From Aquificaceae bacterium (GTDB lineage: Bacteria > Aquificota > Aquificia > Aquificales > Aquificaceae): a DNA stretch of 64,000 nucleotides. The stretch lies in assembly GCA_037924335.1 (NCBI GenBank), contig JAXSMZ010000003.1, positions 32,102-96,101 on the forward strand, written 5' to 3'. The notes beneath the pieces were generated by a model, which was not told where the DNA came from, searched no databases, and worked only from the letters and a program-made list of their open reading frames with translations. The position numbers were made by a program, and so were the translations under genes. Of this stretch, positions 312 to 53,404 are shown one piece after another (position 1 is the first letter of the stretch; each line of letters begins with the position of its first letter).

Positions 312-884
312 ATGCCAGAAGTTTCATACTCTGGATGGGAGACTTTCTTTAGATGGGTTCATTTTTTAGCTGGTATTACTTGGATAGGCCTTCTTTATTT
401 CTTTAACTTGGTGAACGTTCCTTATACAAAGGCTACAAAGCCTGAGGAAAGACCCGCACATGTCCCAAAACTCATGCCCTTGGCTTTGGCATGGTTTAGG
501 TATGCAGCCTTGGTGACAGTAGCCGTTGGTCTTGTTATGATCTATATGAAGTACTGGTCTGCAGGTGATATTGTAAGCTCCAACTCTGCAAAAACTATCC
601 TAGTGGGAGGCATACTCGGTATTATCATGATGCTCAACGTATGGTTCTTTATATGGCCAAACCAGAAGAAGATAATCCAAGCAACAGTTAAAGGGGAAAA
701 GGCAGACCCAGCATGGGGCAAGAGGGCTTTGCTTTTCTCAAGAGTTAACTTTACCCTATCTTATCCCATGTTGCTTTTTATGGGCGCTGCTACACATTAC
801 CCAATGGACTGGAGAATGATACTACTTACTGGCATCGTAACGGCTATTATAGGTGCTGTTATAGTTCTTTTTGTTCAACGCTGA
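312..884 (+). CDS. Urate hydroxylase PuuD-like (DUF989) membrane protein, no cytochrome c domain
   Basis: RWVHFLAGITWIGLLYFFN and NVWFFIWPNQKK motifs; ATG at 312 follows GGAGG. Confidence 0.7.
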   Translation: MPEVSYSGWETFFRWVHFLAGITWIGLLYFFNLVNVPYTKATKPEERPAHVPKLMPLALAWFRYAALVTVAVGLVMIYMKYWSAGDIVSSNSAKTILVGGILGIIMMLNVWFFIWPNQKKIIQATVKGEKADPAWGKRALLFSRVNFTLSYPMLLFMGAATHYPMDWRMILLTGIVTAIIGAVIVLFVQR

Positions 885-885
885 A

Positions 886-1320
886 TTAATGGTTATGCAT
901 CCTCTCGTGCATATCACCCATGCCTCTCTTTACTGGAGCAGACACCTTTATCTCCCCAGACTTCTCAAACTTTAAGGCAAGGTCCACCTTTTGGCCTTCC
1001 TTTGGTTTCTCTGTTAGGTTTATGAGCATGATGTGATAACCACCGGGTTTTAGCTCTACGCTTTTTCCAGCTGGTATCTCGAGAGCTTTTACCCTTCTCA
1101 TCTTTCCGCCTACAGTCTCATGGATCTCCACAGCCTTAGCTATCTTCGTGGATGCACCTATGAGCTTGTCTGGCTCATCCCCCTTGTTTTCAATTACCAT
1201 GTAAGCAGCGCTCATGCTTGATGTTGGAGGAACTTCTCTAACCCATGCGTCCTTGACCTCGATCTTTGGTGCTGCCAATCCAACTCCAGAGACAACAAGA
1301 CCCAAGAGAAGCTTTCTCAT
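886..1320 (-). CDS. Periplasmic copper chaperone PCu(A)C
   Basis: Signal peptide, DAWVR, EIHET...M, LKPGGYHIML, His/Met-rich tail. Confidence 0.9.
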   Translation of the reverse strand: MRKLLLGLVVSGVGLAAPKIEVKDAWVREVPPTSSMSAAYMVIENKGDEPDKLIGASTKIAKAVEIHETVGGKMRRVKALEIPAGKSVELKPGGYHIMLINLTEKPKEGQKVDLALKFEKSGEIKVSAPVKRGMGDMHERMHNH

Positions 1321-1388
1321 GTTCAAACCTCCTTTAGAATTTGATATTAATTCTAGTCCGAAAAGATGAAAATTCTATGAGTTTATAA

Positions 1389-1462
1389 CCGGTCCGGCGG
1401 GAGTCGAACCCGCAACCTTGGGATCCGTAGTCCCACGCTCTATCCAATTGAGCTACGAACCG
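1389..1462 (-). tRNA. tRNA-Arg(ACG), CCA not encoded
   Basis: Cloverleaf CGGTTCG-TA-GCTC..GAGC-G-TGGGA-CTACGGA-TCCCA-AGGTT-GCGGG-TTCGACT-CCCGC-CGGACCG-G. Confidence 0.96.
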
Positions 1463-1482
1463 TAATATTATAGTATATAAGC

Positions 1483-1926
1483 ATGAGGGCTCTTTTGCAA
1501 AGGGTCAAGTCTTCTTGGGTGTTGGTGAATGGAAGGGAAGTTGGGAGGATAGGTGAGGGCTTTAACATCCTTTTAGGTGTAGGAGTGGGAGATTCGGAGG
1601 AGGACGCAAGGAAGCTTGTAGAAAGAATAGTAAACTTGAGGGTCTTTGAGGACAAGTCTGGAAAGTTCAGCCATTCACTGTTGGATGTGAAGGGCTCAGC
1701 TCTTATCATCTCACAGTTTACTCTCTATGCAAGCATGAAGAAGGGAAGGAGGCCAAGCTTTGAAAATGCAGAAAAGCCAGAGAGAGCAAAAGAGCTTTAT
1801 GAGTACTTTGTTAAACTTATGTCTCAAAAGGTTCCAGTAAGCACAGGAGTTTTTGGTACCATGATGGAAGTTAATATAGTGGGTTGGGGTCCTGTTACCA
1901 TACTCCTCGACAGCAAAGATATCTAA
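1483..1926 (+). CDS. dtd: D-aminoacyl-tRNA deacylase
   Basis: MRALLQRV, SQFTL, GRRPSF, GPVT motifs. Confidence 0.95.
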   Translation: MRALLQRVKSSWVLVNGREVGRIGEGFNILLGVGVGDSEEDARKLVERIVNLRVFEDKSGKFSHSLLDVKGSALIISQFTLYASMKKGRRPSFENAEKPERAKELYEYFVKLMSQKVPVSTGVFGTMMEVNIVGWGPVTILLDSKDI

Positions 1927-2765
1927 AAGTTCTGCTCTTCAAGTATCACCTTTTTGTAGAGACTCTCCGGTAGAAATGCATGTCTGTGCATGTCTGTACT
2001 GTAAAGTTTGGTTTGAATATCAATCTGTCTTAATGGCTCTCTTGTCCCGTACTTCTTTGATGCTATGGAAAAAGTCCACCAGTAACCTGCATAACCTGGT
2101 ATAACGGCAGTATATAGGTCCACTATGGGAAACACTTTCTTGAGAGACTTCTGTATCCTTCTTACTATCTCTGTGTGGTAATATATAGACTCTGTCTGCC
2201 CTACGTATATACCATCATCTTTTAAAGCTCTGAAGACATACCTGAAGAACTCCTCAGTGGTTAGCACATGGGCAAACCCTACAGGGTCCGTAGAGTCTAC
2301 CATTATAACATCAAACTCTCCCTCGTAATCCTGTATGTACTTGTAGCCATCCTCGTTCAAAACCATAGCCCTTGGGTCTTCAAAGGCCGCGGACATGGTG
2401 GGGAAAAACTCCTTTGAAACCCTTATCACTTCAGCGTCTATATCAACGAGAACTGCTCTTTTGACATCTTTGTGCTTGAGTACCTCCCTTAGAGCTCCAC
2501 CGTCCCCCCCGCCTATTATGAGTACATTCTCTGGGTTTGGATGGGAGCAAAGGGGAACGTGGGATATAAACTCATGGTATATGAACTCAAACCTCTCATC
2601 ACACTGAGCCACTCCATCAAGAACTAAAACCTTTCCAAAGTTTGGAGACTCTATCACCATGATCTCCTGGTAATCGCTCTTACCTTGGTAGAGGACCTTA
2701 GATACAGGATAGCAATGCCTTATAGGAGCGTATGGGTCTCGCTCAATAAAGAACACATCCAACAT
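1923..2765 (-). CDS. speE: Spermidine synthase / polyamine aminopropyltransferase
   Basis: LDG..Q, YHE, VLIIGGGDGG, DSTDPVG motifs. Confidence 0.95.
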   Translation of the reverse strand: MLDVFFIERDPYAPIRHCYPVSKVLYQGKSDYQEIMVIESPNFGKVLVLDGVAQCDERFEFIYHEFISHVPLCSHPNPENVLIIGGGDGGALREVLKHKDVKRAVLVDIDAEVIRVSKEFFPTMSAAFEDPRAMVLNEDGYKYIQDYEGEFDVIMVDSTDPVGFAHVLTTEEFFRYVFRALKDDGIYVGQTESIYYHTEIVRRIQKSLKKVFPIVDLYTAVIPGYAGYWWTFSIASKKYGTREPLRQIDIQTKLYSTDMHRHAFLPESLYKKVILEEQNF

Positions 2766-2810
2766 TCTTGCTCACCTCTTAAGTTTTGACATTTATTATA
2801 ATCAAAATCC

Positions 2811-3767
2811 ATGAAAGTCTTAGTAACGGGTGGAGCTGGGTACATAGGGTCCCACATGGTGAAGATGCTTGGAAGCATGGGGCATGAAGTTGTTACGTAT
2901 GACAATCTTTCAACAGGAAACAAAGATGCGGTACTTTACGGCAGGCTTGTGGTGGGTGACCTTTTGGAAAAGGAAAAGCTAAGGCAGGTGCTGATGGATT
3001 TTAGACCTCATGTGGTTGTACACTTTGCAGCGAAGATATCCGTACCAGAGAGCGTGAAAGACCCAATTACCTATTACGAGAATAACTTCTGTGGAACTCT
3101 GAACCTGCTCTCTGCGATGGAGGAGGCTAAAGTAAAGCATATGATCTTTTCTTCAACGGCAGCAGTGTACGGTATACCAAAGAGAATACCCATGGCAGAA
3201 GAAGACCCAACACACCCTATAAACCCTTACGGACGGAGCAAGCTCTTTGCAGAGCAAGCCATAAAGGATTCTGGAGTTAGCTTCATCATCCTCAGGTACT
3301 TTAACGTGGCTGGTGCAGACCCAGAAGGTAAGCTTGGAGAAAACTCTAAGGAAGCCTTCCATCTTATCCATAGAGCTCTAAAGGTTGCAAAGGGAGAGAT
3401 ACCTTACATGGAGGTTTACGGGACAGACTACCCAACACCCGATGGCACATGTATAAGGGATTATATACATGTCACAGACTTGATACAAGCACACATTGAT
3501 GCCATGGAGTACCTTTTGGACGGTGGGAAGTCTGACGTTTTTAACGTGGGATACGGTCGTGGTTATTCGGTTCTTGATGTCATAAAGGCTGTAAAAGAAA
3601 TTACAGGAGTGGACTTTGAAGTGAGGTTAGCAGGCAGGAGGGAAGGTGACCCACCAGTTCTAATAGCAGACAGTAGAAAGATAAAGAGCATAGGCTGGAG
3701 ACCCATGTACAACGACCTGAAGTTTGTCATAGGGACTGCTTGGAACTGGGAAAAGAATTATATTTAA
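2811..3767 (+). CDS. galE: UDP-glucose 4-epimerase
   Basis: TGGAGYIGSH, FSSTAAVYG, YGRSK, LRYFNVAGA, DGTCIRDYIHV. Confidence 0.95.
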   Translation: MKVLVTGGAGYIGSHMVKMLGSMGHEVVTYDNLSTGNKDAVLYGRLVVGDLLEKEKLRQVLMDFRPHVVVHFAAKISVPESVKDPITYYENNFCGTLNLLSAMEEAKVKHMIFSSTAAVYGIPKRIPMAEEDPTHPINPYGRSKLFAEQAIKDSGVSFIILRYFNVAGADPEGKLGENSKEAFHLIHRALKVAKGEIPYMEVYGTDYPTPDGTCIRDYIHVTDLIQAHIDAMEYLLDGGKSDVFNVGYGRGYSVLDVIKAVKEITGVDFEVRLAGRREGDPPVLIADSRKIKSIGWRPMYNDLKFVIGTAWNWEKNYI

Positions 3768-3772
3768 AAACT

Positions 3773-4081
3773 ATGGAGTATGAGGTTTACGAAAGGTTGA
3801 AAGATATAAAGGACCCAGAGATACCCTTGGATATAGTAAACCTTGGACTTGTTTACGGTGTAAGCGTGAAAGACAGTATAGCGTACATAGATATGACCTT
3901 AACAGTTCAAGGATGTCCGGCTAAAACTTACTTTGCGCAGTATGTGAGGGAGTATATCCTTAAGAGTTTCCCCAAGCTTAAGGATGTAGTTGTTCAATTT
4001 GTTTTTGAGCCACCCTGGAACAGGGATAAAATATCTGAAGAAGGAAAACAAAAGCTAAGGAGTATGGGATGGAATATTTAA
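3773..4081 (+). CDS. DUF59/SufT-like metal-sulfur cluster assembly protein
   Basis: DPEIPLDIVNLGLVY, TLT..GCP, FEPPW; ATG at 3773 chosen. Confidence 0.88.
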   Translation: MEYEVYERLKDIKDPEIPLDIVNLGLVYGVSVKDSIAYIDMTLTVQGCPAKTYFAQYVREYILKSFPKLKDVVVQFVFEPPWNRDKISEEGKQKLRSMGWNI

Positions 4082-4554
4082 ATAACAAATTTAAGGCTTT
4101 GGCTGAAGCCATTGAAAGGGAGTCTGTCTTAATTCATCGTGCTGCCCTTATAGATGGGTACAGAGACATACACAAATTTTCAAAGCTTGGTATTGATAAG
4201 ATCATAAAGAGGGCTGCCAAGTATGGAGGCAAAAAGGGGGCAAACATACTAAAGGAAAGGTATGGTCTTCTCACAGATAGGCTCGATGAAGCATTGGATA
4301 TACTCACTGTTATAGCAGAATCATCAAGGTTGCTTGATATATTTGAGTACGATATGGATGCTATGGAGATAAGGGTTGAAGGCTCTATACTGGTTGAAGC
4401 CATAGGAAAGAGCGAAAAGCCAGTCTGTGAGCCCATGGCAGGATTCTTTGAAGGTTTTTTGGGTGCTCTTCTAGAAAAGAACTTTGATATTAGGGAAATA
4501 AAATGCAAGGCACAGGGGCACGAGAAATGTATATTTAAAATACACCAAAAATGA
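4069..4554 (+). CDS. V4R-domain protein
   Basis: PVCEPMAGFFEG...EIKCKAQGHEKCIF pattern. Confidence 0.8.
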   Translation: MEYLNNKFKALAEAIERESVLIHRAALIDGYRDIHKFSKLGIDKIIKRAAKYGGKKGANILKERYGLLTDRLDEALDILTVIAESSRLLDIFEYDMDAMEIRVEGSILVEAIGKSEKPVCEPMAGFFEGFLGALLEKNFDIREIKCKAQGHEKCIFKIHQK

Positions 4555-12544: not shown

Positions 12545-13501
12545 CTATTTCCTTTTTGAATAAGTACCATAGGATAACGTGGCTTGCACGCCCAAGATTT
12601 CTGGGTCAAAGGGTAGGTATGTTCTTTTTGACTTGGAAAGACCGTCGATATGTATGCTTGATTTACTCGTAAAAGCGTTCCTTCCTACTATAGGTTTGTT
12701 AGGTTCAAGTTCAAGCCCCTTATTTATAACATAGTCTATCATCTGACGAAGTCCCATTATATCTATACCTGTGTGTATCTTCTGTACAACTTCAAGATAG
12801 AGAACAACCTCTTCAGTTGGAGCTATACCACATCTTTCACCCAGCCCCAGTAAAGATGTGTTTATATACTTTGCACCAGAAAGTGCTGCTACCACAGAGT
12901 TTGCTGTAGCCATACCAAAATCGTTGTGAAAATGTACCTCCACATCTATTATGGGTGAAAGTTCTCTAACAAGCTCAACCACCTTTATCGGATTTAAAAC
13001 TCCAACCGTATCAGATAGTCTTATCCTATCTGCGTCCATCTCTTTTATGTGGTCTACAAACTTGAACACAAAGTTTTTATCAGCACGGGATACATCCTCA
13101 AGCCCAACGGACACGTAAAGGCCATGAGTCTTTGCATAGGGTACTAAGTTCTTAGCAAGGCCAAGCACGTATTCCCTTGTCCTTCTTAACTTTTCTTCTA
13201 TCATGATGTCGGATATGGGGAATGCTATCTCTACTTTTTTAACCTTACACTGGATAGCGAGTTCTATATCCTTTTGGTTAGCTCTATTCCAGACGATCAG
13301 CTTTTCTGCATACTGGCTTTCTGCAAGATCCTTTATGTATTCCCTCTCTTCTTCGCTGTAAGCAGGAACACCAGCTTCTATTTCCTCCAAACCAATTAGA
13401 GCCAAGAAGAAGAATATATCTTTTCTCTCTTGATAAGAGAGTTCAAAACTTGCCGACTGAATACCCTCTCTTAAGGTAGTATCCGTTATAAATACCCTCA
13501 T
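12545..13501 (-). CDS. Homocitrate synthase/NifV-like DRE-TIM metallolyase, short and divergent
   Basis: DTTLREGIQ, EAGVP, SDTVG, HFHNDFGMATAN, GLGERCG; 318 aa, no regulatory domain. Confidence 0.75.
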   Translation of the reverse strand: MRVFITDTTLREGIQSASFELSYQERKDIFFFLALIGLEEIEAGVPAYSEEEREYIKDLAESQYAEKLIVWNRANQKDIELAIQCKVKKVEIAFPISDIMIEEKLRRTREYVLGLAKNLVPYAKTHGLYVSVGLEDVSRADKNFVFKFVDHIKEMDADRIRLSDTVGVLNPIKVVELVRELSPIIDVEVHFHNDFGMATANSVVAALSGAKYINTSLLGLGERCGIAPTEEVVLYLEVVQKIHTGIDIMGLRQMIDYVINKGLELEPNKPIVGRNAFTSKSSIHIDGLSKSKRTYLPFDPEILGVQATLSYGTYSKRK

Positions 13502-14595
13502 ACCATGCTCCCTATTTTTTCTAAAACATCCCTTAGAGTGTTAAGGAATGTTTTTATATCCCCTATGGATGTAAGAGGTGGTACTCTTATGAAGAGAAGG
13601 TCTTCAAAACCACACTTCTCCTTTATCCTACCCTTTACCCTGTTTACCATGCAGGGAGATGGATAGCTCAAAAAATAACCCTTCTTTTCCATGAAGGATA
13701 TTAGCATTTCTGCCTCCATGTCCTTTAAACCATAAGAAAAAAGGCCAGGAGCCTTCCAACCTTCTTTAAAGACTGGAGGAAGAGATAGATTTTCCATAAT
13801 GTATCTGTCGCAAAGGTTGAGGCTTTTCTTCACAGCCTCCTCTCTTTCCATCAAAAGTGCTATAGATTTGGATAGTGAGAATGTCCCAAAGAGATTTTCC
13901 TCTCCAGCTCTTAATCCCCTCTCCTGAACCCCCCCTTCTATCAGAGGCTTGACCCTTACATTTTTTCTCACGTAAAGAACACCTACTCCCTGAGGTCCAA
14001 GCAGGAATGGTCCATCCAAGCTTGCCATATCAAGATCCCTCAAGTCAATCTGGCTGGTGGGATAATAAAGTCCCCACAGATCAAAGTGGCAAAGGGTGTT
14101 CGGATTTGCTCCTTTAACTGCCTTTGTAATTCCATTTACATCCCTCAACGTCGCCGTTTCTCTGCACACTGCCCCCATGGTGACCAACAACGTATCTTCA
14201 GTGACAGCATCTTTTACACGCTCTGGGTCTATGAAACCTGTTTTGTCTGTCCCTAAGTAAACTATCCTTAAGCCTTGTTTTTCTGATAGAGTTTTTAAAG
14301 GGTGTAGGATGGAGGGGTGTTCAAAATCGGTGGTAATTATGCTACCCCTTTTGTTCCACACAGCACCTTTTATAGCAAGGTTGTTGCTTTCCGTAGAGCT
14401 TGATGTAAAAATTATTTCAGAGTTAGCACATTTAAGGAATTCTGCCACAACTGCCCTTGACCTTACAAGCATCTCCTTTGATTTTGTGGATAATGTGTTT
14501 AGTCCAGAAGGGTTTATAAAAAAGTAGGGTAGATTATTGTAAACTTCTCTAAAGACCTCTGGAAAAGGAAAGGAGGAGTATGGTTCATAGATCAT
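13498..14595 (-). CDS. NifS/IscS-like fold-type I protein lacking the PLP lysine
   Basis: IIFTSSSTESNN, EHPS, GPQGVGVLY, GGVQERGLRAG retained; SxHK replaced by DGPF; late Cys in SPCM. Confidence 0.75.
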   Translation of the reverse strand: MIYEPYSSFPFPEVFREVYNNLPYFFINPSGLNTLSTKSKEMLVRSRAVVAEFLKCANSEIIFTSSSTESNNLAIKGAVWNKRGSIITTDFEHPSILHPLKTLSEKQGLRIVYLGTDKTGFIDPERVKDAVTEDTLLVTMGAVCRETATLRDVNGITKAVKGANPNTLCHFDLWGLYYPTSQIDLRDLDMASLDGPFLLGPQGVGVLYVRKNVRVKPLIEGGVQERGLRAGEENLFGTFSLSKSIALLMEREEAVKKSLNLCDRYIMENLSLPPVFKEGWKAPGLFSYGLKDMEAEMLISFMEKKGYFLSYPSPCMVNRVKGRIKEKCGFEDLLFIRVPPLTSIGDIKTFLNTLRDVLEKIGSMV

Positions 14596-16381
14596 GCATA
14601 AACTCCTCTAAGGAAAGCCTGACAAGCGTCTCTTTTGTTGGCTTACCTTCCTTATCCCAGCCAAAGGCATTGTAAAACTCCTTTATCATAGACACAAGTT
14701 CCTCTTCTGTAGTTCTGTACCCCATCTCTGTACATTCTTTCTTTATCCTATCGGGCAACGTGTCATCCTTTCTGGAGAAGCCCTCTTTCACATTGAAAAG
14801 TCTTTCGAGTGTATAGATCCTTTCTCCTATCTTGTAAAGCTCGTCCATGGAGATTTCCCAATCCATTAGGGCGTTAACCATATTCAGTATCTCCTCATTG
14901 AGCACGTACCCCACAACCCTTTCCGCACTAAGACAGTAGATGATGCTGTTGACCACACATGTCCAAACAGCAAGGTCCTTACCCATTTTTCCTTTACCCT
15001 CTGGCTTTCCTAAGGGTACTATGTTATTCTCTTCCATTCCAGGCCTTATATCGCAATGGACTGGTCCCCTGTTGGAAACAGCGTAACCAAGAGCCTGAGT
15101 CTTTACAGCCCTTGGAGAATGTCCTGCTATCTCCGTACCTTTGACTGTCAAAAGAAAGGACTCTCCTATACCAAGGAACTTAGAGGCCCTCTGAGAGCCT
15201 TCCGCAAGCACATTACCTATACCTTCCCTAAAAGCTATCTTCTTTAATAGTTTTTTGACAGCCTCAGTGTTGCCAAAATTAAGCTCAAGTCCATCCAAAC
15301 TTTCCCTACTTATGAGCCCCTTCTCATAACACTCCATAATCCATGCTACCACTCCACCGGTCTGTATCTGCCCAAGCCCAAGCTCGTCTGTCAGCCTATC
15401 CAAGCTTATCAGCTCATCCAAATCCCAGTTTCCAATGGCTGTTCCCATAGAAAAAATACCCTCATACTCCGGACCAACTGTGAAGGTATCTTTACTCACA
15501 GAGTATTTTCCACAGGGAACTATGCATCCAAAACAGGAAATATCCTTTATCACCTTACTCCTCAACGATTCTCCGCTGATCTTTTCTGCAAAGGGGAAGG
15601 TCTCCCTTTGCCAGTTGTATGAGGGCAGAGCTCCAATGTGCTGAAGATGCATAACCCCTGCAGCCGTTCCAAACATCACAAGATTCTTAACTCCAGGATG
15701 TTTATGGACTTTTTCCTCAAAGCCTTTTATAAAGTCAATGAGTTTATCAGGATTACGAGGTTTTAATAACCTTTCCCCTCTTACTGTGATAGCCTTTACT
15801 CTTTTTGAACCGAGGACAGCACCAATACCACCGGTGCCCACAGCTCTTAGGTCTGATATAACGCAGGCATACTTTACAAGATTTTCACCAGCTGGACCGA
15901 TAACGAGAGTTTTCACATCCTCTCCATACTTTTCCTTTAGCTTTTTTTGAGCAATACTCGTGTAGGAACCCTTTAGTTCCTCTGTCTTGTTGAAGTAAAC
16001 CTTATCGTTCTCTATGTGTATATGTGTCCAATCATGGCAAGATCCGGTGAGTATAATACCATCCCACCCGGCAAACTTTATTTCCTGTCCAAACTCACCC
16101 CCGCAGAAGCCTTTGGTAAAGCCCAGCGTCTGGGGAGATTTGGTAAACATAGCAAGTTTTGAAGCCATCGGTAAAAGGGTACCGTTTGCTGGGCCTGTGT
16201 TGATTATCACAGGATTATCCTCTGAAAGAGGGTCAGAACCTCTTTTTGTAAACTTGTAAAGAAGGTATACACCTAAGCCGTTTCCTCCTAAGTACTTCTC
16301 TACAAGCCCTTCAGGTACTTCGTAAACATCGTACTTCCTTTCTGTAAGGTCTATTAGAAGATACCTTCCCCACCAACTCAT
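14585..16381 (-). CDS. Aldehyde:ferredoxin oxidoreductase (AOR/WOR) family protein
   Basis: YLGGNGLG, KSPQT, IGPAGEN, GAVLGSK, CFGCIVPC, GPEYE, ERLFN.KEG, DTLP.R; start at ATG overlapping ferredoxin stop. Confidence 0.92.
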   Translation of the reverse strand: MSWWGRYLLIDLTERKYDVYEVPEGLVEKYLGGNGLGVYLLYKFTKRGSDPLSEDNPVIINTGPANGTLLPMASKLAMFTKSPQTLGFTKGFCGGEFGQEIKFAGWDGIILTGSCHDWTHIHIENDKVYFNKTEELKGSYTSIAQKKLKEKYGEDVKTLVIGPAGENLVKYACVISDLRAVGTGGIGAVLGSKRVKAITVRGERLLKPRNPDKLIDFIKGFEEKVHKHPGVKNLVMFGTAAGVMHLQHIGALPSYNWQRETFPFAEKISGESLRSKVIKDISCFGCIVPCGKYSVSKDTFTVGPEYEGIFSMGTAIGNWDLDELISLDRLTDELGLGQIQTGGVVAWIMECYEKGLISRESLDGLELNFGNTEAVKKLLKKIAFREGIGNVLAEGSQRASKFLGIGESFLLTVKGTEIAGHSPRAVKTQALGYAVSNRGPVHCDIRPGMEENNIVPLGKPEGKGKMGKDLAVWTCVVNSIIYCLSAERVVGYVLNEEILNMVNALMDWEISMDELYKIGERIYTLERLFNVKEGFSRKDDTLPDRIKKECTEMGYRTTEEELVSMIKEFYNAFGWDKEGKPTKETLVRLSLEEFMHDL

Positions 16382-16599
16382 GACACAAACTCCAAAGCAT
16401 TTAGAAGACAAAAATCAATACAGTACAATTCCTGACAATCTTCACAATAGCCTAACCTGTATGCGATGGGTTTATTCCCTATGTCCGTTTTTATTTCAAT
16501 GGAGGAGTACCTTGGATTAAAACCTCCCTTTTTATAAAAGGAACAGGCCAACATGCACCTTTTGCATCCTGAACAAAGGTCTAAGTTTAACCTTATCAT
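16378..16599 (-). CDS. Small [4Fe-4S] ferredoxin (AOR-associated)
   Basis: CSGCKRCMLAC and CEDC....C...C. Confidence 0.85.
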   Translation of the reverse strand: MIRLNLDLCSGCKRCMLACSFYKKGGFNPRYSSIEIKTDIGNKPIAYRLGYCEDCQELYCIDFCLLNALEFVS

Positions 16600-16600
16600 C

Positions 16601-16855
16601 TTAGCCTCCTGCAGTTGGAAGTGTTATCACAAGCTCGTCATCTTCCTTCACCACCTCCGTGTCCTTACAAACCAGTCTACCGTTTAGTATTAGAAGTATG
16701 CCCTCCCACAACTGGCCTCCGCTGTAAAGGAGTGCATCCATACCCTTTAAGTTTGAAACCCTGTCAAGCACATCCTTTATGTTTTTAACGTTTTCTATTT
16801 CAATGACCTCCTTTCCAGCAACATACCCAAGGTAGCCCAACAGTTTCACCCTCAT
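16601..16855 (-). CDS. MoaD/ThiS-family sulfur carrier
   Basis: MRVKLLG, ILNGR, C-terminal AGG; start placed at second ATG, downstream of the predicted sigma54 start site. Confidence 0.85.
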   Translation of the reverse strand: MRVKLLGYLGYVAGKEVIEIENVKNIKDVLDRVSNLKGMDALLYSGGQLWEGILLILNGRLVCKDTEVVKEDDELVITLPTAGG

Positions 16856-16869
16856 CCTAGACATTATTG

Positions 16870-16886
16870 TGCAAAGAATATGCCAG
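16870..16886 (-). promoter_or_regulatory. Sigma54 -24/-12 promoter for moaD-fd-aor-nifS-like-nifV-like operon
   Basis: Minus strand CTGGCATATTCTTTGCA: GG-N10-GC. Confidence 0.85.
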
Positions 16887-16903
16887 GTTTTTATTATGTT
16901 TTT

Positions 16904-16941
16904 TGTAAACTTTGTTACAAAAAAATGTAAGAAAAATTACA
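16904..16941. promoter_or_regulatory. Two tandem NifA-type upstream activator sequences
   Basis: TGT-AAACTTTGTT-ACA (16904-16919) and TGT-AAGAAAAATT-ACA (16926-16941), both TGT-N10-ACA. Confidence 0.8.
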
Positions 16942-16957
16942 AAACCTTTTTATTCCA

Positions 16958-16974
16958 TTGGTACAGATGTTGCA
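16958..16974 (+). promoter_or_regulatory. Sigma54 -24/-12 promoter for nifA-like gene
   Basis: TTGGTACAGATGTTGCA: GG-N10-GC. Confidence 0.75.
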
Positions 16975-16988
16975 TATATTATTTTAGG

Positions 16989-18551
16989 ATGGATATGGAG
17001 ATTTTAAAGAGGTTTATGAGTGCTGAACTTCAACTACTTTATAACTTATCAAAAAAACTCACCACAATGAATTTAAACCCTGGGCAGTTAATGAAAGACT
17101 TAGTATATATGCTTGGTGAGTTAGAAGGTGTTAGGAGGGTGGCCCTTTACGTTGCCAATACAGATACATCTAGCGTATCTTTGGTTTCGAGCATTGGTGT
17201 GAATGAGAGCAACGTAACGCTTGATAAGGAAGAAGGTGTGGTAGGCTTTATATTTGGAAAGGGCTATCCTGTTGTTATTAAGAATCTTATGGAAGAGCCA
17301 CTTTTCTTAAACAAGATCAAGAGAGAAAGGCTAAACGATGTAAGCTTCATAGGTGTTCCAATTAGGTACAACGACAAGATCGTAGGCGTTATAACAGTTG
17401 ATATAAACAAGGGATTTATCGCAACGGCATACTTAGCAGACCTACTTCTCATGATAGCGAACCTTATAGGGAATTATATATACACTTACATGAAGCTAAA
17501 CGAGAGGGAGAGTGTCCTTAAAGAAGAGATAGCGACGCTTAAGAGAGAGTTTATAAAAAAGTTTAAGGTTGAAGGGTTCATAGGCGTAAGTAGGGCTTAT
17601 CAAAGCATCGTAAAACAGGTTTTGAAGATAGCTGAATTGGACGTTACCGTGATGATAAGGGGGGAATCTGGAACAGGCAAGACTACACTTGCCAAAGCTA
17701 TCCATTACTTTTCTAAAAGGAAAAACCGCCCCTTTGTTGAGATTAACTGTTCAGCGATTCCCACAGAATTACTCGAAGCAGAGCTTTTCGGTTATGAAAA
17801 GGGTGCATTCACCGGTGCTTACACCACAAAGATAGGCAAGCTTGAGGCAGCAAATGGGGGAACTATATTCTTTGATGAGATAGGAGACTTAAGCCTTACC
17901 ATTCAGGCAAAGCTTTTAAGGTTTATGCAGACAAAGGAATTTGAGAGGCTTGGTAGCACAAAAACGCAGAGGTCTGATGTCAGGATCATAGTTGCAACGA
18001 ATAAAAACCTTGAAAATATGGTAGCAAAGGGAGCGTTCAGAGAAGACCTATATTATAGGATAGCTATCTACCCCATATATATTCCGCCTTTAAGAGAGAG
18101 GAAGGAGGACATCCCCGTTTTAGTTCAGCATTACCTAACCCAGCTCGGCAGTATGATAGGTAGAAAGTTAAAGGTTGAAGAGAGCACATTGAAGGCGATA
18201 ACATCCTGTGATTTTCCAGGTAATGTAAGGGAACTGATCAACTGTCTGACAAGAGCCGCCATATCATCCAACACGGACCTTATAAAGATGAGCGACCTAT
18301 CGTGCATAGGTACAGGTGTATGTTTTTCTCATATTAAGAAGGAGGATACTGAAAAAGAGAATACGCAGGTGGGAATAAAAGGACAAAAAGATCCCACTGT
18401 TTATGTGCCAAAAGATGAAAGGTCCATGATCATAGAGACTCTCGAGAAGGTTGGTTATGTTCAAGCAAAAGCGGCAAGATTGCTTGGTATGACAGTTAGA
18501 CAGCTCAATTACAGATTGAAGAAGTACAATATACCCATAAAGAAGATTTGA
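16989..18551 (+). CDS. NifA-like sigma54-dependent activator (GAF-AAA+-Fis HTH)
   Basis: GAF domain, GESGTGKT, GAFTGA, FFDEIG, FREDLYYR, C-x11-C-x19-C-x5-C, VQAKAARLLGMTVRQL. Confidence 0.9.
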   Translation: MDMEILKRFMSAELQLLYNLSKKLTTMNLNPGQLMKDLVYMLGELEGVRRVALYVANTDTSSVSLVSSIGVNESNVTLDKEEGVVGFIFGKGYPVVIKNLMEEPLFLNKIKRERLNDVSFIGVPIRYNDKIVGVITVDINKGFIATAYLADLLLMIANLIGNYIYTYMKLNERESVLKEEIATLKREFIKKFKVEGFIGVSRAYQSIVKQVLKIAELDVTVMIRGESGTGKTTLAKAIHYFSKRKNRPFVEINCSAIPTELLEAELFGYEKGAFTGAYTTKIGKLEAANGGTIFFDEIGDLSLTIQAKLLRFMQTKEFERLGSTKTQRSDVRIIVATNKNLENMVAKGAFREDLYYRIAIYPIYIPPLRERKEDIPVLVQHYLTQLGSMIGRKLKVEESTLKAITSCDFPGNVRELINCLTRAAISSNTDLIKMSDLSCIGTGVCFSHIKKEDTEKENTQVGIKGQKDPTVYVPKDERSMIIETLEKVGYVQAKAARLLGMTVRQLNYRLKKYNIPIKKI

Positions 18552-22040: not shown

Positions 22041-22472
22041 ATGAGAAGAGGACTTTCACTTTGGAGCCCAATAGCAGAGCTTGAAAGGATAAGAAGGGAG
22101 TTTGATAGGTTAATATCGGAGATCTGGCCAGCGGAGGAGGTAGAGAGAGCCTTTTCACCAGCCGTTGAGGTGTACGAAACAGATAAGGAGGTTGTTGTCA
22201 AGGCTGAGCTTCCAGGTGTAAGGAAGGAAGATATTAAAGTTAGCATTAAGGACAACATGCTTTATCTGAAGGGTGAAAAGAAGGAAGAGAGAGAAGAAAA
22301 GACAGAGACCGTACATAGAGTAGAGAGGGTTTATGGAAAATTTGAAAGAGTGATAACTTTACCCTCAGACGTGAAGATGGAAGATATTAAAGCAGAATAC
22401 AAGGACGGTGTTTTGGATATAAGACTACCAAAAACGCAAGTGGCAAAGGAGAAAGAGATAGAGGTCAAATAA
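22041..22472 (+). CDS. Hsp20 small heat-shock protein
   Basis: AELPGV, ER.YG.F.R...LP, A.YKDGVL.I..PK. Confidence 0.95.
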   Translation: MRRGLSLWSPIAELERIRREFDRLISEIWPAEEVERAFSPAVEVYETDKEVVVKAELPGVRKEDIKVSIKDNMLYLKGEKKEEREEKTETVHRVERVYGKFERVITLPSDVKMEDIKAEYKDGVLDIRLPKTQVAKEKEIEVK

Positions 22473-23757
22473 GGCTATGTAGTGGGCGCTTTTCTATATG
22501 CGCCCCTAACTTCCTTAGCTTTTCATCCATCCTTTCGTATCCTCTTTCCAGATGGTGTATATCCCTTACAATAGTCGTTCCCTCTGCCACAAGCCCAGCG
22601 AGAACCAAGCTCGCAGAAGCTCTCAGGTCAGTGGAAAAAACTTCAGCACCAGTTAATCTTTCCGTCTTTCTTACTATTGCGGTTCTTCCATTTATGTGTA
22701 TGCTTGCTCCCATCCTCTGAAGTTCTGCCACATGCTGAAACCTATTTTCAAATATGTTTTCTGTGACCTCTGAAGTGCCATCCGCTATACAACACATAGC
22801 AATAAACTGAGCTTGCATGTCTGTAGGAAATCCGGGATATTCAGAAGTTTGTATAGTTAAAGGTCTTATTCTCTCATCCTTGGAGTATATCCTTATTCTA
22901 TCCTTATCTTTTACCTCTATGCTTGCTCCAGCTTCGTAGAGCTTTTCCAGCACACTGCCCAGATGTTGAGGGTAGGCTCCCAGAAGCTCTACATCCCCCC
23001 CTGTCATAAAACTTGCGACGAGAAAAGTGCCCGCCTCTATCCTGTCTGGTATAACTCTGTGTCTAAAGCCCCTCAGTTGGGACATCCCCCTTATTACCGC
23101 AACCCTACCCTCTATTTCTATTTCAACACCCATTTTCCTGAGAGCCTCCACAAGGTCTATTACCTCCGGTTCAAGGGCTATGTTCCTTAGAATGCTTCTC
23201 TTTTCGCATCTGCTCAGAAACATGATGGCGTTCTCCGTTCCAGTTACTGTGATAACATCAAAAGTGTGTTCCACTGGCTTTATTTTTTTTAGTTCTAAGT
23301 GTATGTATCCATGCTCAACTCTTATGCTAGCCCCACCCTTTTCAAAGACCCTCAGGTGCTGGTCTATGCTCCTTACACCTATGGAACATCCTCCAGGCAT
23401 AGAAACAGTAGCTTTACCAAACCTTGAAAGGAGAGGGCCCATGGCAAGCACAGACGCCCTCATCCTCCTAACGATATAGTCTGGAGCCACATAGTTGCTT
23501 AGGTTTGAAGCATCAACCCTTAAGACTTTATCCTTGTATTCAAACTCAGCTCCTAAAATCTTTAGGAGTTCTAACGTGTTTTCTACATCAAGGAGCCTTG
23601 GAACGTTCTCAATATAGCAAACTTCATCCGTCATAAGCACAGACATCATCAGAGGAAGGGATGCGTTCTTTGAACCAGAGACCTCAACCTGCCCCTTTAG
23701 CCTTCTTCCTCCTTCTATTACTAAGCTCTCAGAAGAATATGATGTTATGTTTTTCAT
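22465..23757 (-). CDS. murA: UDP-N-acetylglucosamine 1-carboxyvinyltransferase
   Basis: SGSKNA, MRAS, PGGCSIG, PDRIEAGT, YPGFPTDMQ, DLRA. Confidence 0.97.
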   Translation of the reverse strand: MKNITSYSSESLVIEGGRRLKGQVEVSGSKNASLPLMMSVLMTDEVCYIENVPRLLDVENTLELLKILGAEFEYKDKVLRVDASNLSNYVAPDYIVRRMRASVLAMGPLLSRFGKATVSMPGGCSIGVRSIDQHLRVFEKGGASIRVEHGYIHLELKKIKPVEHTFDVITVTGTENAIMFLSRCEKRSILRNIALEPEVIDLVEALRKMGVEIEIEGRVAVIRGMSQLRGFRHRVIPDRIEAGTFLVASFMTGGDVELLGAYPQHLGSVLEKLYEAGASIEVKDKDRIRIYSKDERIRPLTIQTSEYPGFPTDMQAQFIAMCCIADGTSEVTENIFENRFQHVAELQRMGASIHINGRTAIVRKTERLTGAEVFSTDLRASASLVLAGLVAEGTTIVRDIHHLERGYERMDEKLRKLGAHIEKRPLHSLI

Positions 23758-23902
23758 CCTTCCTTATTATAATCTTTACCACTTCCCACTTTTTAGAGTA
23801 GTATATGAGAACACCATCATCCTCTTCTAAGTAAACTGGTTCCTCTTCTGAGTATACAACGGTTATTCTATCCTCCCCATCCAACACCTTTGGATAAGTC
23901 AT
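23729..23902 (-). CDS. Small DUF2283-like protein (57 aa)
   Basis: Below ORF-track cutoff: MTYPKVLDGEDRITVVYSEEEPVYLEEDDGVLIYYSKKWEVVKIIIRKDEKHNIIFF; ATGA overlap with upstream gene, fills the gap to murA. Confidence 0.65.
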   Translation of the reverse strand: MTYPKVLDGEDRITVVYSEEEPVYLEEDDGVLIYYSKKWEVVKIIIRKDEKHNIIFF

Positions 23903-24198
23903 ATCCTGACCACTACACAGGTGAGTGCTTCCTTCACACCTTCCAACGAGTGTATCTTATTTATAACTAATCTACCAAGCTCATCTTGATTTCTAAGTTC
24001 AGAAAAAACTATAATATCGTATGGACCAGTTACTACATCTGCTGTTTTTACACCATCAAAAGTTGAAAGAGCAAGCATGATGGACGGTATCTCTCTCGGG
24101 TCTGCTTTTATTAGAATGTAGGCTTTTATGGAATACTCGGATTCAAGCTCCATCAGCTCTGTTATAGACATGGGATAACCCTCTGAACGCGTTTCCAT
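23899..24198 (-). CDS. Stand-alone Lrp/AsnC ligand-binding (RAM) domain protein
   Basis: KAYILI, VTGPYDII, I..LEGV....T; AGGAGG RBS. Confidence 0.85.
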   Translation of the reverse strand: METRSEGYPMSITELMELESEYSIKAYILIKADPREIPSIMLALSTFDGVKTADVVTGPYDIIVFSELRNQDELGRLVINKIHSLEGVKEALTCVVVRI

Positions 24199-25372
24199 AC
24201 TCTACCTCCTTGACGAATATTTTATACAATCTTTCTGCCATAGATGGTTGCTTCCTTATCTCCTCAACAACGGAGTGTATGAGCCTTCTTACCGCCGGTT
24301 CCTTAGCCTCTAAGTCCTTCCACTCTTCCTTTATTCTTATTATGTAATCCTCCACGCTCAGGAGATGAAGCCATCTTATGAACTTTTCCACCTCGTCCCA
24401 AAGGATTATCTCCCCCTTTTCTTTTTCCTTTAACCTTTCCATAAGGTTTTTCTCCGCTATGCTTTTTAGGTCATCTATGTTATAAAGGAAAACCTCATCA
24501 AGCTCATCTATAGAAGGGTCTGCATTTCTTGGCACAGATATATCTATGATGAACATAGGGTTATATTTCCTGACCTTCATAGCCCTTTTTACTTCGTCTC
24601 TCTTTAGTATAAAATCCTTCGAACTTGTTGAAAGGATCACTATATCGAATTCGCTTATATATTCAGAGATGCCTTCAAACCTAAGAGCATGCCCATCAAG
24701 CCTTTGCGCAAGTTCTACAGCCCTTTCGTAAGTTCTGTTTGTTATGAATATCTGAGCCTGAAACTTTTTCATGTACGTGGATGCAAGCTCTGCCATCTCA
24801 CCAGCACCAACAAGAAGTACCCTTGCCTTTTTCAGGTCTCCGAATATCTTCCTTGCAAGTTCAACGGCAACATAGCTTATGGAAACAGCGTTCTTGCTTA
24901 TACTCGTCTCCGTTCTTATCCTCTTTGCTGTTCTTAGAGCTTTCTCGTAGAGCCTGTTGAAGATCTTTCCCGTAGTTCCCACTTCTTTTGCTATTCTAAA
25001 GGCCTCTTTGAACTGTGATGTTATCTGAGTTTCCCCAACAACCATAGAATCAAGGCTTGAAGCAACGCTAAATATGTGAAGCAACGCCTCCCTTCCCTTC
25101 AAAAGGAAGGAGTGCTTCCACAGATCCATACTTACCCTTTTTATAGATAAAAAATCGTTTACGAGTTGACGCATAGAATCGTACCCATCCGTTCTTGAAT
25201 AGATCTCAACCCTGTTACAGGTGGAAAGGATAACAAGCTCCTTTATATCCCTTGTTGTTTTTAATGCTGGAAGCAGGTATTCTATCTCCTCCCTACTGCA
25301 TGCAACCCCTTCCCTAAACTCTATGGGTGCAGTCTTAAAGCTAAGACCCCATGCAAATATGCTCTCCATCAC
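24143..25372 (-). CDS. hemA: Glutamyl-tRNA reductase
   Basis: STCNRVE, SLDSMVVGETQI, GAGEM, DISVPR. Confidence 0.96.
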   Translation of the reverse strand: MMESIFAWGLSFKTAPIEFREGVACSREEIEYLLPALKTTRDIKELVILSTCNRVEIYSRTDGYDSMRQLVNDFLSIKRVSMDLWKHSFLLKGREALLHIFSVASSLDSMVVGETQITSQFKEAFRIAKEVGTTGKIFNRLYEKALRTAKRIRTETSISKNAVSISYVAVELARKIFGDLKKARVLLVGAGEMAELASTYMKKFQAQIFITNRTYERAVELAQRLDGHALRFEGISEYISEFDIVILSTSSKDFILKRDEVKRAMKVRKYNPMFIIDISVPRNADPSIDELDEVFLYNIDDLKSIAEKNLMERLKEKEKGEIILWDEVEKFIRWLHLLSVEDYIIRIKEEWKDLEAKEPAVRRLIHSVVEEIRKQPSMAERLYKIFVKEVEYGNAFRGLSHVYNRADGA

Positions 25373-36756: not shown

Positions 36757-36785
36757 TTGAAAACTATTTTTGAATATGGTATAAT
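36757..36785 (+). promoter_or_regulatory. Sigma70-type promoter of hyf/ehr cluster
   Basis: TTGAAA-17 nt-TATAAT with extended -10 TG; implies the track's TTG start at 36757 is not the real start. Confidence 0.7.
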
Positions 36786-36849
36786 TACATGTGTGAGTTC
36801 TGAAGAAACTGAACCATTACCTTTTACATCCCTTCTAAAGAGGTTTAAC

Positions 36850-38754
36850 ATGGTTATGTATTTACTTTCTATTGCAATCTTTATTTCTTTTTCTGTCTAT
36901 GGTTTATATCTGCTCTTTACAGTTCCTTCTTTTATAATAAGTTTTAATATCTCATCAATCCTTGATTTCTCCTTTGGTGGAGATGCTCTTTCAGGATTTT
37001 TTATTCTTCTTATATCTACTCTTTCAATTCCCGTATCATTTTATTCAATAGGGTATACAAAACACATTAATAATAAGTTGCTTATGGCTCTCTTGTTCAA
37101 TCTCTTTATACTTAGCATGTATGCTGTAATACTATCTCAGAACATAATAACCTTCCTTATATTCTGGGAAACCATGTCTATCATATCTTACTTTCTTGTT
37201 ACCTTTGAAAGGGATGAAAGGTCTGTTAAGGCTGGTCTTGTTTATGCGGTTATGACACATGTTGGCACTGCTTTTATCGTTATACTCTTCCTTTTACTCT
37301 ACCATTACAGTGGAAGTATGAACTTTTCAGACATAAGGAATGTTTCTCTGAATATACCAAGTGAAATAAAAGATACTGTGTTTGTTTTTGCCCTTATAGG
37401 CTTTGGTACAAAGGCTGGAATAATTCCTTTCCACACGTGGCTCCCAAGAGCTCACCCCGCAGCACCTTCCAATATTTCATCCCTTATGTCTGGTGTGATG
37501 ATAAAGACAGGGATTTATGGCTTTATAAGGGTGTGCATGGATATGCTTGGTGGTGGTTCCGAATGGTGGGGCATAACGGTGCTAATAGCGGGGGCTGTCT
37601 CTTCTGTTTTAGGCGTAATCTATGCTCTTATGGAGCATGACCTAAAAAGGCTCCTTGCCTATCATAGCATTGAAAACATAGGCATAATACTTCTGGGTAT
37701 TGGCGCTTCCATGCTTTTTAAAACCCATAGTATGTATGCTCTGGCATCCATCGCTCTTATAGCAGGGCTATATCATATCCTTAACCATGCGGTATTTAAG
37801 GGATTACTCTTTCTTAGCGCAGGTTCGGTGCTTCATTCAACGCATACAAGGGATATGGAAAAGCTGGGAGGACTTATAAAACTCATGCCTTACACAAGCC
37901 TATTCTTTCTCATAGGGTCTGTTTCCATATGTGCCCTTCCGCCCTTTAACGGTTTTGTAAGCGAGTGGCTAACTTACCAGTCCCTTCTGCTTGGTTTTAA
38001 TGTGCCTTCCATAACGGTGAAGATCATCTCTCCCCTTGGCGGTGCTGTCCTTGCGCTCACCGGTGCCCTTGCGGCAGCGTGCTTTGTAAAAGCCTTTGGC
38101 ATATCCTTCCTTGGTATGCCAAGGAGTAAGCATGCGAAAGAGGCAAAGGAGGTATCACCCTCAATGATACTTGGCATGGCTATACTTGCAGTCTTATGCC
38201 TTCTTCTGGGTATATTTCCTGGCACCGTATCAAATATCATAGCTCCCGCATCTTCCATAATCAGTGGCTCTTATGGCCTGCATTCTTATAAGGGCTTAAT
38301 CCTTATAAAGGAAACTGGCTCGGGGTTATCATCTGGCTTTGTGCTTGCAACTATGATAATCGTAAGCCTTGCTGTCATACTCTTTATATACATAGCAGGA
38401 GGTAAGAAGAGGGTAAGGTATGGTGATTCTTGGGACTGTGGCATACCTTCTCTCACTCCTAGAATGCAATATTCAGCTACTGGTTTCACAAAACCCATAA
38501 GGATGATCTTTAAGAGGATATACCTTCCAAGGAGAGAAATATCTGTCTCTTATATTGTAAAACCCTTCTTTGTTAAGTCCATAAAATATAAAAGCGAGAT
38601 AACGCCCTTTTTTGAAAAATACATTTATGAACCTGGTGTGCTGTTTATACACAGGCTTGCAAGCAAGATGAGGCTTCTCCAGTCAGGAAGCCTTCACCTT
38701 TATCTTGGCTACATATTAATAACACTCATTGTACTTTTGATATTTGGGGTGTAA
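36850..38754 (+). CDS. hyfB: HyfB/EhrA-like antiporter-type membrane subunit
   Basis: FWE.MS, GFGTKAG, WLPRAHPAAP, LKRLLAYHSIENIG, PPFNGFVSEW, WDCG. Confidence 0.88.
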   Translation: MVMYLLSIAIFISFSVYGLYLLFTVPSFIISFNISSILDFSFGGDALSGFFILLISTLSIPVSFYSIGYTKHINNKLLMALLFNLFILSMYAVILSQNIITFLIFWETMSIISYFLVTFERDERSVKAGLVYAVMTHVGTAFIVILFLLLYHYSGSMNFSDIRNVSLNIPSEIKDTVFVFALIGFGTKAGIIPFHTWLPRAHPAAPSNISSLMSGVMIKTGIYGFIRVCMDMLGGGSEWWGITVLIAGAVSSVLGVIYALMEHDLKRLLAYHSIENIGIILLGIGASMLFKTHSMYALASIALIAGLYHILNHAVFKGLLFLSAGSVLHSTHTRDMEKLGGLIKLMPYTSLFFLIGSVSICALPPFNGFVSEWLTYQSLLLGFNVPSITVKIISPLGGAVLALTGALAAACFVKAFGISFLGMPRSKHAKEAKEVSPSMILGMAILAVLCLLLGIFPGTVSNIIAPASSIISGSYGLHSYKGLILIKETGSGLSSGFVLATMIIVSLAVILFIYIAGGKKRVRYGDSWDCGIPSLTPRMQYSATGFTKPIRMIFKRIYLPRREISVSYIVKPFFVKSIKYKSEITPFFEKYIYEPGVLFIHRLASKMRLLQSGSLHLYLGYILITLIVLLIFGV

Positions 38755-38757
38755 AAG

Positions 38758-39675: not shown

Positions 39676-39688
39676 TAGGAGGTAAGGC

Positions 39689-40348: not shown

Positions 40349-40353
40349 GAAGG

Positions 40354-43382: not shown

Positions 43383-43405
43383 AATAAAGGCTGGAGGTAA
43401 GTGAT

Positions 43406-47128: not shown

Positions 47129-47138
47129 GAGGAATGAA

Positions 47139-48163: not shown

Positions 48164-48164
48164 C

Positions 48165-53403: not shown

Positions 53404-53404
53404 T

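Follow-up and report, generated by a model that had tools for sequence, protein, structure and literature searches.

A nitrogenase-linked gene module of Aquificales with an AOR-family protein of altered cofactor pocket

Our study concerns a gene cluster in a stretch of 64,000 nucleotides (the window) of the Aquificaceae bacterium genome GCA_037924335.1 (contig JAXSMZ010000003.1, positions 32,102 to 96,101 of the forward strand; this genome is called G000 below, and its relatives as well as individual loci and proteins carry codes of the type G0xx, L0xx, and P0xxx). Five overlapping or abutting genes, which encode a MoaD-like carrier, a small Fe-S protein, an AOR-family protein, a NifS-like protein, and a NifV-like homocitrate synthase, are transcribed divergently from a gene for a NifA-type activator (Table 1). 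A preliminary description made from the sequence had already proposed this arrangement together with sigma54 promoters and TGT-N10-ACA sites between operon and activator, and both parts were borne out by open reading frame (ORF) coordinates, best family matches, and comparison with relatives. The family labels stand as best matches, since none of the six proteins (0/6) reaches its own NCBIfam cut-off. The MoaD-like and ferredoxin-like genes are separated by a single nucleotide, while the following junctions overlap by 4 nt (ferredoxin-like/AOR-like), 11 nt (AOR-like/NifS-like), and 4 nt (NifS-like/NifV-like), and judging from these overlaps the five genes are probably co-transcribed. Start codons were revised for NifA (ATG at 16989 instead of GTG at 16869) and for the AOR-like protein (16381); the start of the MoaD-like protein is most likely at 16855.

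Table 1. Genes and regulatory sites of the locus (positions in the window).
Feature	Position	Strand	Remarks
NifV-like (homocitrate synthase)	12545..13501	-	318 aa, divergent, ~60 aa below usual length; best NCBIfam match TIGR02660
NifS/IscS-like without pyridoxal phosphate (PLP) lysine	13498..14595	-	H-K replaced by P-F; Cys315 retained
AOR-family protein, 598 aa	14585..16381	-	Remodelled cofactor and substrate pockets; Pfam AFOR_N and AFOR_C
Half-size Fe-S subunit (ferredoxin-like), 73 aa	16378..16599	-	8 cysteines; resembles N-terminal half of tungsten AOR small subunits
MoaD/SAMP-like ubiquitin-fold protein	16601..16855	-	C-terminal Gly-Gly; tail predicted in AOR-like active-site channel
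Sigma54 -24/-12 site, five-gene operon	16871..16885	-	Pattern match; conserved in relatives
TGT-N10-ACA activator site 1	16904..16919	.	Presumably common to both promoters
TGT-N10-ACA activator site 2	16926..16941	.	22 bp from site 1
Sigma54 -24/-12 site for nifA	16959..16973	+	Putative autoactivation
NifA, 520 aa	16989..18551	+	GAF, AAA+, HTH; C-x11-C-x19-C-x5-C motif at residue 407

The two sigma54 sites point outward from a 133-bp intergenic gap and flank both TGT-N10-ACA sites. Matches to the sigma54 pattern are enriched in the window (5 vs 0.92 expected, with 0/100 shuffles reaching 5), and TGT-N10-ACA alone occurs there at chance level (14 found vs 12.8 expected). Genome-wide, two TGT-N10-ACA sites within 120 nt accompany 2/59 sigma54 sites, both of them at this locus (background 0.0004), and six other sigma54 sites of G000 have a single one, among them the site of the nifH promoter and those of two promoters in the nifB region. 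Both divergent promoters were found again in 8/8 relatives examined, and these motifs suggest that the locus is likely switched on by NifA. Exactly 15 nt lie between the -12 GC and the ATG at both promoters (16855-16871; 16973-16989); this spacing leaves no space for a ribosome-binding site, so that both mRNAs are likely near-leaderless, unlike those of other nif promoters of G000 where AGGAGG leaders are present. Scans of the window for sigma70 promoters and terminators gave chance-level results only.

The preliminary description had viewed the locus as a nif-like regulon built around an AOR-family enzyme instead of nitrogenase. It was right that the window contains no nifHDK, but G000 (99.94% complete) encodes a nitrogenase on other contigs, with nifH, nifD, a split nifK, nifE, nifN, and nifX on contig C1 and nifB, nifW, nifT, two P-II genes, and a ferredoxin on C13. 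We reject a nitrogenase-free regulon because these genes are present and because most relatives carry the five-gene set within their nif cluster; in G000, the locus belongs with the nitrogen-fixation genes but lies detached from the rest of them. Of 178 genomes from the phylum, 11 have the AOR-like gene and 14 have matches to both nifH and nifD. All Aquificales genomes with an intact nifH (9/9) contain the AOR-like gene, and 10/11 of its carriers have nif genes. The remaining two carriers are G040, which has nifDKEN-type genes, and G080 (54% complete), where nifA adjoins the operon; a Pfam search (PF01314) revealed no further AOR member in Aquificales. In 8 relatives the AOR-like gene lies 2-15 kb from nifH on the same contig, with only nif-cluster genes between them in 7/8, and nifV is the next or next-but-one gene in 10/10 loci whose downstream region is available. 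Gene order varies between families, yet the moaD-like, Fe-S, and AOR-like genes remain in the cluster. The 97 loci returned by two scans of sequence collections, namely L060 and 96 generic AORs, served as a control, and none of them (0/97) had structural or cofactor nif genes in its flanks, which were often short. The AOR-like gene is under purifying selection, with a ratio of nonsynonymous to synonymous substitution rates (dN/dS) of 0.09-0.15 in three pairs that is similar to those of nifE, nifN, and nifV, and it is a nif accessory in Aquificales.

These data bear directly on the alternative that a mobile moaD-fd-aor cassette merely travels in the nif island and has a role unrelated to nitrogenase, be it detoxification of aldehydes when oxygen is low or a catabolic pathway involving the DRE-TIM enzyme (the NifV-like protein). 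Cassettes of moaD and aor have been described as mobile, nif is patchy and moves as a block, and the related cassette L060 has no visible nif genes. We nevertheless consider such a passenger improbable: Of the nif-less Aquificales examined, only G080 has the cassette, which has been retained through rearrangements in two families under sigma54 promoters with activator sites and the selection described above, and was not found in G051 and G108, where nif is broken. Moreover, the Gly-Gly end of the carrier is conserved in 9/10 relatives' copies and changed only in G033, the genome with a split nifD. The catabolic version, already raised in the preliminary description, is unlikely, as the positional counterparts of the NifV-like protein in G035 and G107 pass the NifV cut-off.

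The structure model of the AOR-like protein (predicted local distance difference test (pLDDT) 83.7, predicted template modelling score (pTM) 0.90) shows the three-domain fold of the family and matches the Pyrococcus furiosus enzyme 1AOR with a template modelling (TM) score of 0.93. In a tree of 280 aligned homologues of 540-740 aa, which comprise the best-scoring matches rather than the whole family and exclude shorter fragments, 56 sequences form one clade (FastTree support 1.0) composed of an Aquificales branch of 37 and 19 others, one cluster of which contains an Armatimonadota fragment. Contig scans with the AOR-like protein returned one close locus (an Aquificaceae metagenome-assembled genome, 86% identity) and 17 generic AORs, and a metagenome scan was dominated by the generic AOR pattern, with one clade locus (L060) among 80. 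The ESM Atlas yielded generic AOR clusters only, and the database names of homologues are likewise generic. The protein belongs to neither of two subfamilies that we compared, since it scores 163.5 bits against the YdhV model of NCBIfam (cut-off 868) and 24.2 bits against that of GAPOR (cut-off 1300).

All 56 clade sequences retain the four [4Fe-4S] cysteines C283, C286, C290, and C483 as well as T239, H442, R179, and D332. The position of 1AOR D343 is Gly in 56/56 clade sequences and Asp in 224/224 other homologues, that of R186, which we take to bind phosphate, is Thr, Ser, or Gly in 56/56 and Arg or Lys in 224/224, and that of D489 is Asn throughout the clade. Once the sequences had been dereplicated, only 3 of 598 positions (R186, D343, and T344) proved to be at least 70% conserved in other AORs and at most 20% in the clade. 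The second-shell residues Thr243, Glu313, Tyr427, and His448 map to T239, E307, H421, and H442, which are kept in 37/37 Aquificales sequences; the Tyr-to-His change at H421 also occurs in a known AOR. The same 37 sequences all have Cys93 and Cys443. Among the 19 non-Aquificales members, R446 and E487 are kept in all, while the catalytic Glu is Gln in 14.

No list of pterin contacts of 1AOR was found in the literature, and we therefore took the contacts from 8C0Z (AorAB of Aromatoleum aromaticum), for which the accessible part of the preprint names Arg75, Gly94, Arg181, Asp361, Asp504, Ile508, Cys509, and Val510. According to the same text, each helical domain surrounds one pterin and Asp361 is a hydrogen-bond partner of a pterin. 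These positions map to K75, G94, R179, G337, N478, Y482, C483, and L484, so that D343 of 1AOR equals Asp361 of 8C0Z and G337 here. Of the four side chains that form pterin hydrogen bonds (8C0Z Arg75, Arg181, Asp361, Asp504), one is kept, two are conservatively changed, and one is lost. The domain-2 pterin would thereby be left without its anchor while the site of the cluster-side pterin is conservatively changed, which suggests a single or modified pterin, or none. The aromatic residues of the benzoate pocket of 8C0Z (Tyr468, Phe511, and Phe514) are replaced by R446, S485, and R488. The module is genuine and conserved, is accessory to nif, and has at its core an AOR-family protein with a variant cofactor pocket.

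The two small proteins encoded upstream are plausible partners of this enzyme. Small subunits of tungsten AORs (9MQX_E, 8C0Z_C, and 6X1O_B) are among the top four PDB matches of the Fe-S subunit, which corresponds to their first half; its 8 cysteines are invariant in 11/11 sequences. Because of this match and because the subunit is fused to the AOR in the clade member P0041, it is likely the enzyme's own electron wire. The MoaD-like protein has relatives with the beta-grasp fold (TIGR01687, 33 bits against a cut-off of 49.5) and is distinct from a housekeeping MoaD encoded on C31 of G000. Its predicted complex with the AOR-like protein scored 0.79 against 0.02 for the best control, with agreement in at least 94% of contacts between runs and partner pLDDT of at least 86. 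The mark that we used for docking is reached by 116/157 solved complexes and 2/215 mismatched pairs, rates that apply roughly to these runs with their own alignments. In the model, the last seven residues of the carrier (78-84) contact T239, C290, E305-E307, H421, and H442, that is, the MoaD-like tail is predicted to enter the channel to the metal site. The prediction supports binding of carrier and AOR without showing it, and none of 8 PDB matches of the carrier is an AOR entry, so that no similar complex was found by sequence. Conserved residues specific to the clade are enriched on the interface (7/38 vs 31/560, Fisher p 0.007). A carrier of this type would be activated by MoeB, which has a match in 88/89 family relatives and 171/178 genomes. 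Neither MoeB nor ThiF was found in the G000 assembly, probably due to an assembly gap despite its 99.94% completeness, and activation independent of an E1 enzyme, which we had considered, was rejected on these grounds.

The NifS-like protein lacks the PLP lysine, as its S-x-H-K motif is replaced by P-F in the window and by P-S or P-F in relatives, but Cys315 of the mobile loop is invariant in 7/7. Close orthologues occur in 8/178 genomes, all of them AOR-positive. A lysine-bearing cysteine desulfurase or IscS was not found in G000, G046, and G072; the housekeeping IscS-like protein on C2 of G000 (L044:6918-8138) is also devoid of the PLP lysine (H-L), as is PDB 9WFY, and at E<=1e-20, G159 and G164 have no IscS-like match apart from a weaker one of aminotransferase type in each genome. 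We considered the module as the sole replacement of cysteine desulfurase, but this idea is weakened by G107, which has a lysine-bearing enzyme. The NifV-like protein reaches 324 bits against TIGR02660 (cut-off 463), and its counterparts in G035 and G107 score 496 and 499. Its residues H190, H192, E135, H284, and Y295, presumably the metal-binding HxH and the catalytic Glu, His, and Tyr, are invariant in 8/8, while GEQ is changed to GxQ and GERAGN to GERCGI, and the NifV of G033 carries a Glu-to-Lys change. NifA scores 484 bits against TIGR01817 (cut-off 529) and a paralogue on C17 scores 486, so that this model does not separate them, but close orthologues of the NifA N-terminus occur in only 8/178 genomes, all AOR-positive, and are linked to nif promoters; in G031, G033, and G072, nifA is the next gene upstream of nifH. 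Residues 407-445 of NifA (window 18207-18323) form the cysteine motif listed in Table 1, which presumably resembles the oxygen-sensing motif of alphaproteobacterial NifA.

With the gene set, its promoter motifs, the nif linkage, purifying selection, and the clade-wide pocket changes established, we tentatively favor the view that the MoaD-like, Fe-S, and AOR-like proteins form a module loading sulfur, and probably molybdenum, for the metal clusters of nitrogenase. We prefer this role because the clade-wide features are the changed pocket and the carrier-facing surface rather than the catalytic Glu, and because the module stands at the usual place of nifU, which commonly precedes nifS and nifV, while searches for NifQ and for a nif-linked NifU found neither of them (in G033, G046, and G072, genes with an Nfu domain are located far from nif). 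Housekeeping MoeB would activate the Gly-Gly tail, and sulfur, perhaps delivered via Cys315 of the lysine-less NifS, would convert it to a thiocarboxylate. The tail could then hand sulfur to a metal site with at most one normally bound pterin, for which Cys93, Cys443, His421, His442, and Glu307 are possible ligands, and electrons would enter from the half-size Fe-S subunit via the [4Fe-4S] cluster of the AOR itself. The reduced Mo-S or sulfur product might finally join homocitrate made by NifV in the NifB/NifEN pathway, and the module would thereby do the job of NifQ or of a nif-specific NifU. No protein of the window has a Pfam match to either of them, and the likeness that we propose is functional only. 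In a variant of this mechanism, sulfur would flow in reverse and pass from a reduced sulfur oxyanion to the carrier. A modified metal center with a sulfur relay was one of the options of the preliminary description and fits best, but its homocitrate ligand on the AOR is unsupported because the window nifV is the only one of the genome and needed by nitrogenase (the other relatives in G000 are LeuA- and citramalate-synthase-like paralogues).

Several observations weigh against this reading. The phosphate and pterin contacts K75, R179, D332, and G94 are kept in 37/37 Aquificales sequences and, together with the second-shell residues, are as expected of a working pterin enzyme that does not give its metal away. 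In addition, the pocket changes are not shown to be nif adaptations because they are present in L060, a clade member from outside Aquificales in which genes for a MoaD-like, an Fe-S, a B12-binding radical SAM, and an AOR-like protein follow one another (507-4265) and no nif gene is visible in 4.7 kb (the radical SAM protein might act on the cofactor or itself require the module). Three genomes of family f5 have nif without the module, G107 retains it despite the desulfurase mentioned above, and co-occurrence with nif does not represent independent events since the genomes are related to each other and nif travels as one block. The search that did not find NifQ in 178 genomes had no positive control. 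Furthermore, the interface enrichment is partly circular, as it uses the same alignment and 5/7 residues are contiguous, the docking controls included no canonical AOR-MoaD pair, and the docking may reflect maturation only because MoaD beside an AOR is a generic arrangement (PMC1779556, available text).

A different function, possible but in our view less probable, would be that of an electron donor: The AOR-like protein would still be a Mo/W-pterin aldehyde oxidoreductase with a modified cofactor that oxidizes an anionic aldehyde such as glyceraldehyde-3-phosphate and feeds low-potential electrons to nif ferredoxins via the Fe-S subunit, and maturation of the metal site would be the sole task of the MoaD-like protein. 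Together with housekeeping PGK and GAPDH, this would form a cycle that uses ATP to drive electrons from NAD(P)H to ferredoxin, for which the GAPOR cycle of Methanococcus maripaludis, also based on an AOR-family enzyme, is a precedent and the model (PMC3585446, as far as its accessible text goes), though the protein studied here lies outside the GAPOR clade (24 bits against 1300). The preliminary description had likewise suggested a source of reduced ferredoxin for a nitrogenase encoded elsewhere, and the nitrogenase is indeed elsewhere, which leaves this option a strong rival. ETF/Fix and RnfD were not found in G000 (control profiles matched in 10 and 4 of 14), and a 2026 paper on an Aquificales diazotroph reports the absence of Fix and Rnf and leaves the donor open in its accessible parts (PMC12780486). 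The retained second shell and the exchange of an aromatic pocket for R446, S485, and R488, suited to an anion, fit as well, as does the nif-type ferredoxin gene directly before the AOR-like gene in G035 and G107. However, a donor role leaves the loss of D343 and R186 unexplained, and the catalytic Glu is lost in 14/19 non-Aquificales members that keep the interface. Autotrophs with the reductive tricarboxylic acid cycle already need low-potential ferredoxin, and the window itself contains an Ehr/Hyf-like complex. Finally, no tungstate-specific transporter was recognized, with one MoeA and two ModA found. A related proposal with adjoining proA in a glutamate-semialdehyde cycle was rejected, as proA follows nifV only in G000 and G032.

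The same inventory of transporters is part of the case for yet another role, in which the protein would bind tungsten imported by ModA as a sink or Mo/W sorter and keep it out of the iron-molybdenum cofactor (FeMo-co). Hot springs are rich in tungsten, a poison of Mo-nitrogenase, the AOR family binds tungsten almost exclusively, only uptake of the ModA type was recognized, and four related nif clusters contain TOBE-domain genes. We regard this explanation as unlikely, since a sink would have no need of an Fe-S wire or of a conserved carrier interface, and one 66-kDa protein per metal is costly. Roles beyond those discussed here retain a similarly small share of the probability.

Among known systems, a functional parallel to the favored sulfur- and molybdenum-loading module is formed by proteobacterial nifUSV operons and NifQ, which serve cluster and molybdenum supply and in which a NifS-like gene and nifV share an operon of NifA type. 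The locus has the same pair in one such operon and the same putative supply role, but unlike there, no nifU or nifQ was found, moaD-fd-aor occupies the usual place of nifU, and the NifS-like protein is a lysine-less paralogue of housekeeping IscS. A lysine-less IscS with retained loop cysteine is also known from Archaeoglobus fulgidus (4EB5; compare PDB 9WFY), where, according to the text available, it has no desulfurase activity and supplies a Cys ligand (PMC7585200); the window copy is further diverged, being shortened and devoid also of the His, and has no iscU beside it. With tungsten AORs (1AOR; 8C0Z with AorD/E; 9MQX; 9G7J) the AOR-like protein shares the fold (TM 0.91-0.93), the four Fe-S cysteines, the second-shell Thr, Glu, and His, an Fe-S small subunit, and a neighboring MoaD-like gene. 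It differs from them in D343G, T344Q, R186T, D489N, and R76K, two added cysteines, the Arg/Ser/Arg substitution of the aromatic pocket, a small subunit of half size, and its place in nif clusters under sigma54 promoters with activator sites. MoaD/SAMP neighborhoods of AORs (PMC1779556; Thermococcus kodakarensis tk1064-tk1066, PMC11323500) have the same grouping of moaD, ferredoxin, and aor genes, and L060 resembles them further by its radical SAM gene. Their carriers were proposed to act in molybdopterin synthesis, and the accessible portions of both papers do not mention direct binding of carrier and AOR, whereas for the carrier studied here the prediction is direct binding to the active site of the AOR-like protein.

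Our literature search found no paper that links an AOR-family gene to nif clusters in the main texts that it covered, including the portions available of PMC13066941, 10.1101/2023.01.23.525143, PMC9295118, PMC6365974, PMC8300815, and PMC10745432. In term searches of the accessible text, "aldehyde" is absent from PMC12780486, and aldehyde, AOR, and tungst are absent from PMC12903952; a term search of PMC6307999 gave no match either. Aquificales fix N2 at 70 C or more and at low oxygen, and since Fix, Rnf, NifQ, and nif-specific NifU were not found there, the module stands out as a conserved nif-linked component that could fill a gap in either electron donation or cofactor assembly. A clade without residues that are unchanged in 224 other homologues challenges the statement that all known AOR-family members hold a bis-metallopterin (PMC12096430, available text), and the predicted docking of the carrier opens a way to test the sulfur ligand of tungsten AORs, which is under debate (PMC12727526, as presented in its accessible part). 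If one goes further, and here we are doubtful, the module could be an undescribed machine in which an AOR fold without one or both pterins receives sulfur from a ubiquitin-like carrier inserted into the former active site and, by means of an Fe-S wire, produces a Mo-S precursor of FeMo-co in place of NifQ/NifU, and the same docking may be a general route of the sulfur ligand to the metal in the AOR family. Thermophilic nif parts are also of interest for nitrogenase engineering.

Some further features of the nif regions and the window deserve mention. The nifK of G000 (C1:102698-104337; L011:4698-6337) consists of two ORFs of 251 and 295 aa that overlap by ATGA, is also split in G033, G061, and G072, and forms a single ORF in G035 and G107; the accessible text of PMC12780486 already mentions a split NifK. 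Genes for a DegT/DnrJ aminotransferase-like and a cNMP-binding (Crp-like) protein lie between nifK and nifE (L010:16593-18701) and recur in related Aquificales nif clusters. In G033 (L055), nif is apparently decaying, with a split nifD, a shortened nifB, a split Crp-like gene, and the Glu-to-Lys change in NifV; the MoaD-like protein ends in Gly-Glu and the AOR-like ORF is still whole. On contig C8 of G051 (L146), broken nifH and nifD and a nifA remnant adjoin hemA, an Lrp-like gene, murA, and hsp20, and since these genes also lie 3.5-7 kb from nifA in the window (22041-25372), this may hint at an old site of the nif island. An Rfam scan of the window detected nothing but a tRNA-Arg(ACG) (1389-1462, minus strand). 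The Hyf/Ehr-like membrane complex of the window (36757-43942), whose large subunit has no CxxC pair for the NiFe site, is possibly a ferredoxin-linked energy-converting complex. On the same contig as nifA, a denitrification block spans 45155-63998 and encodes a Sec-dependent NosZ (above cut-off) and NirJ-like heme d1 proteins.

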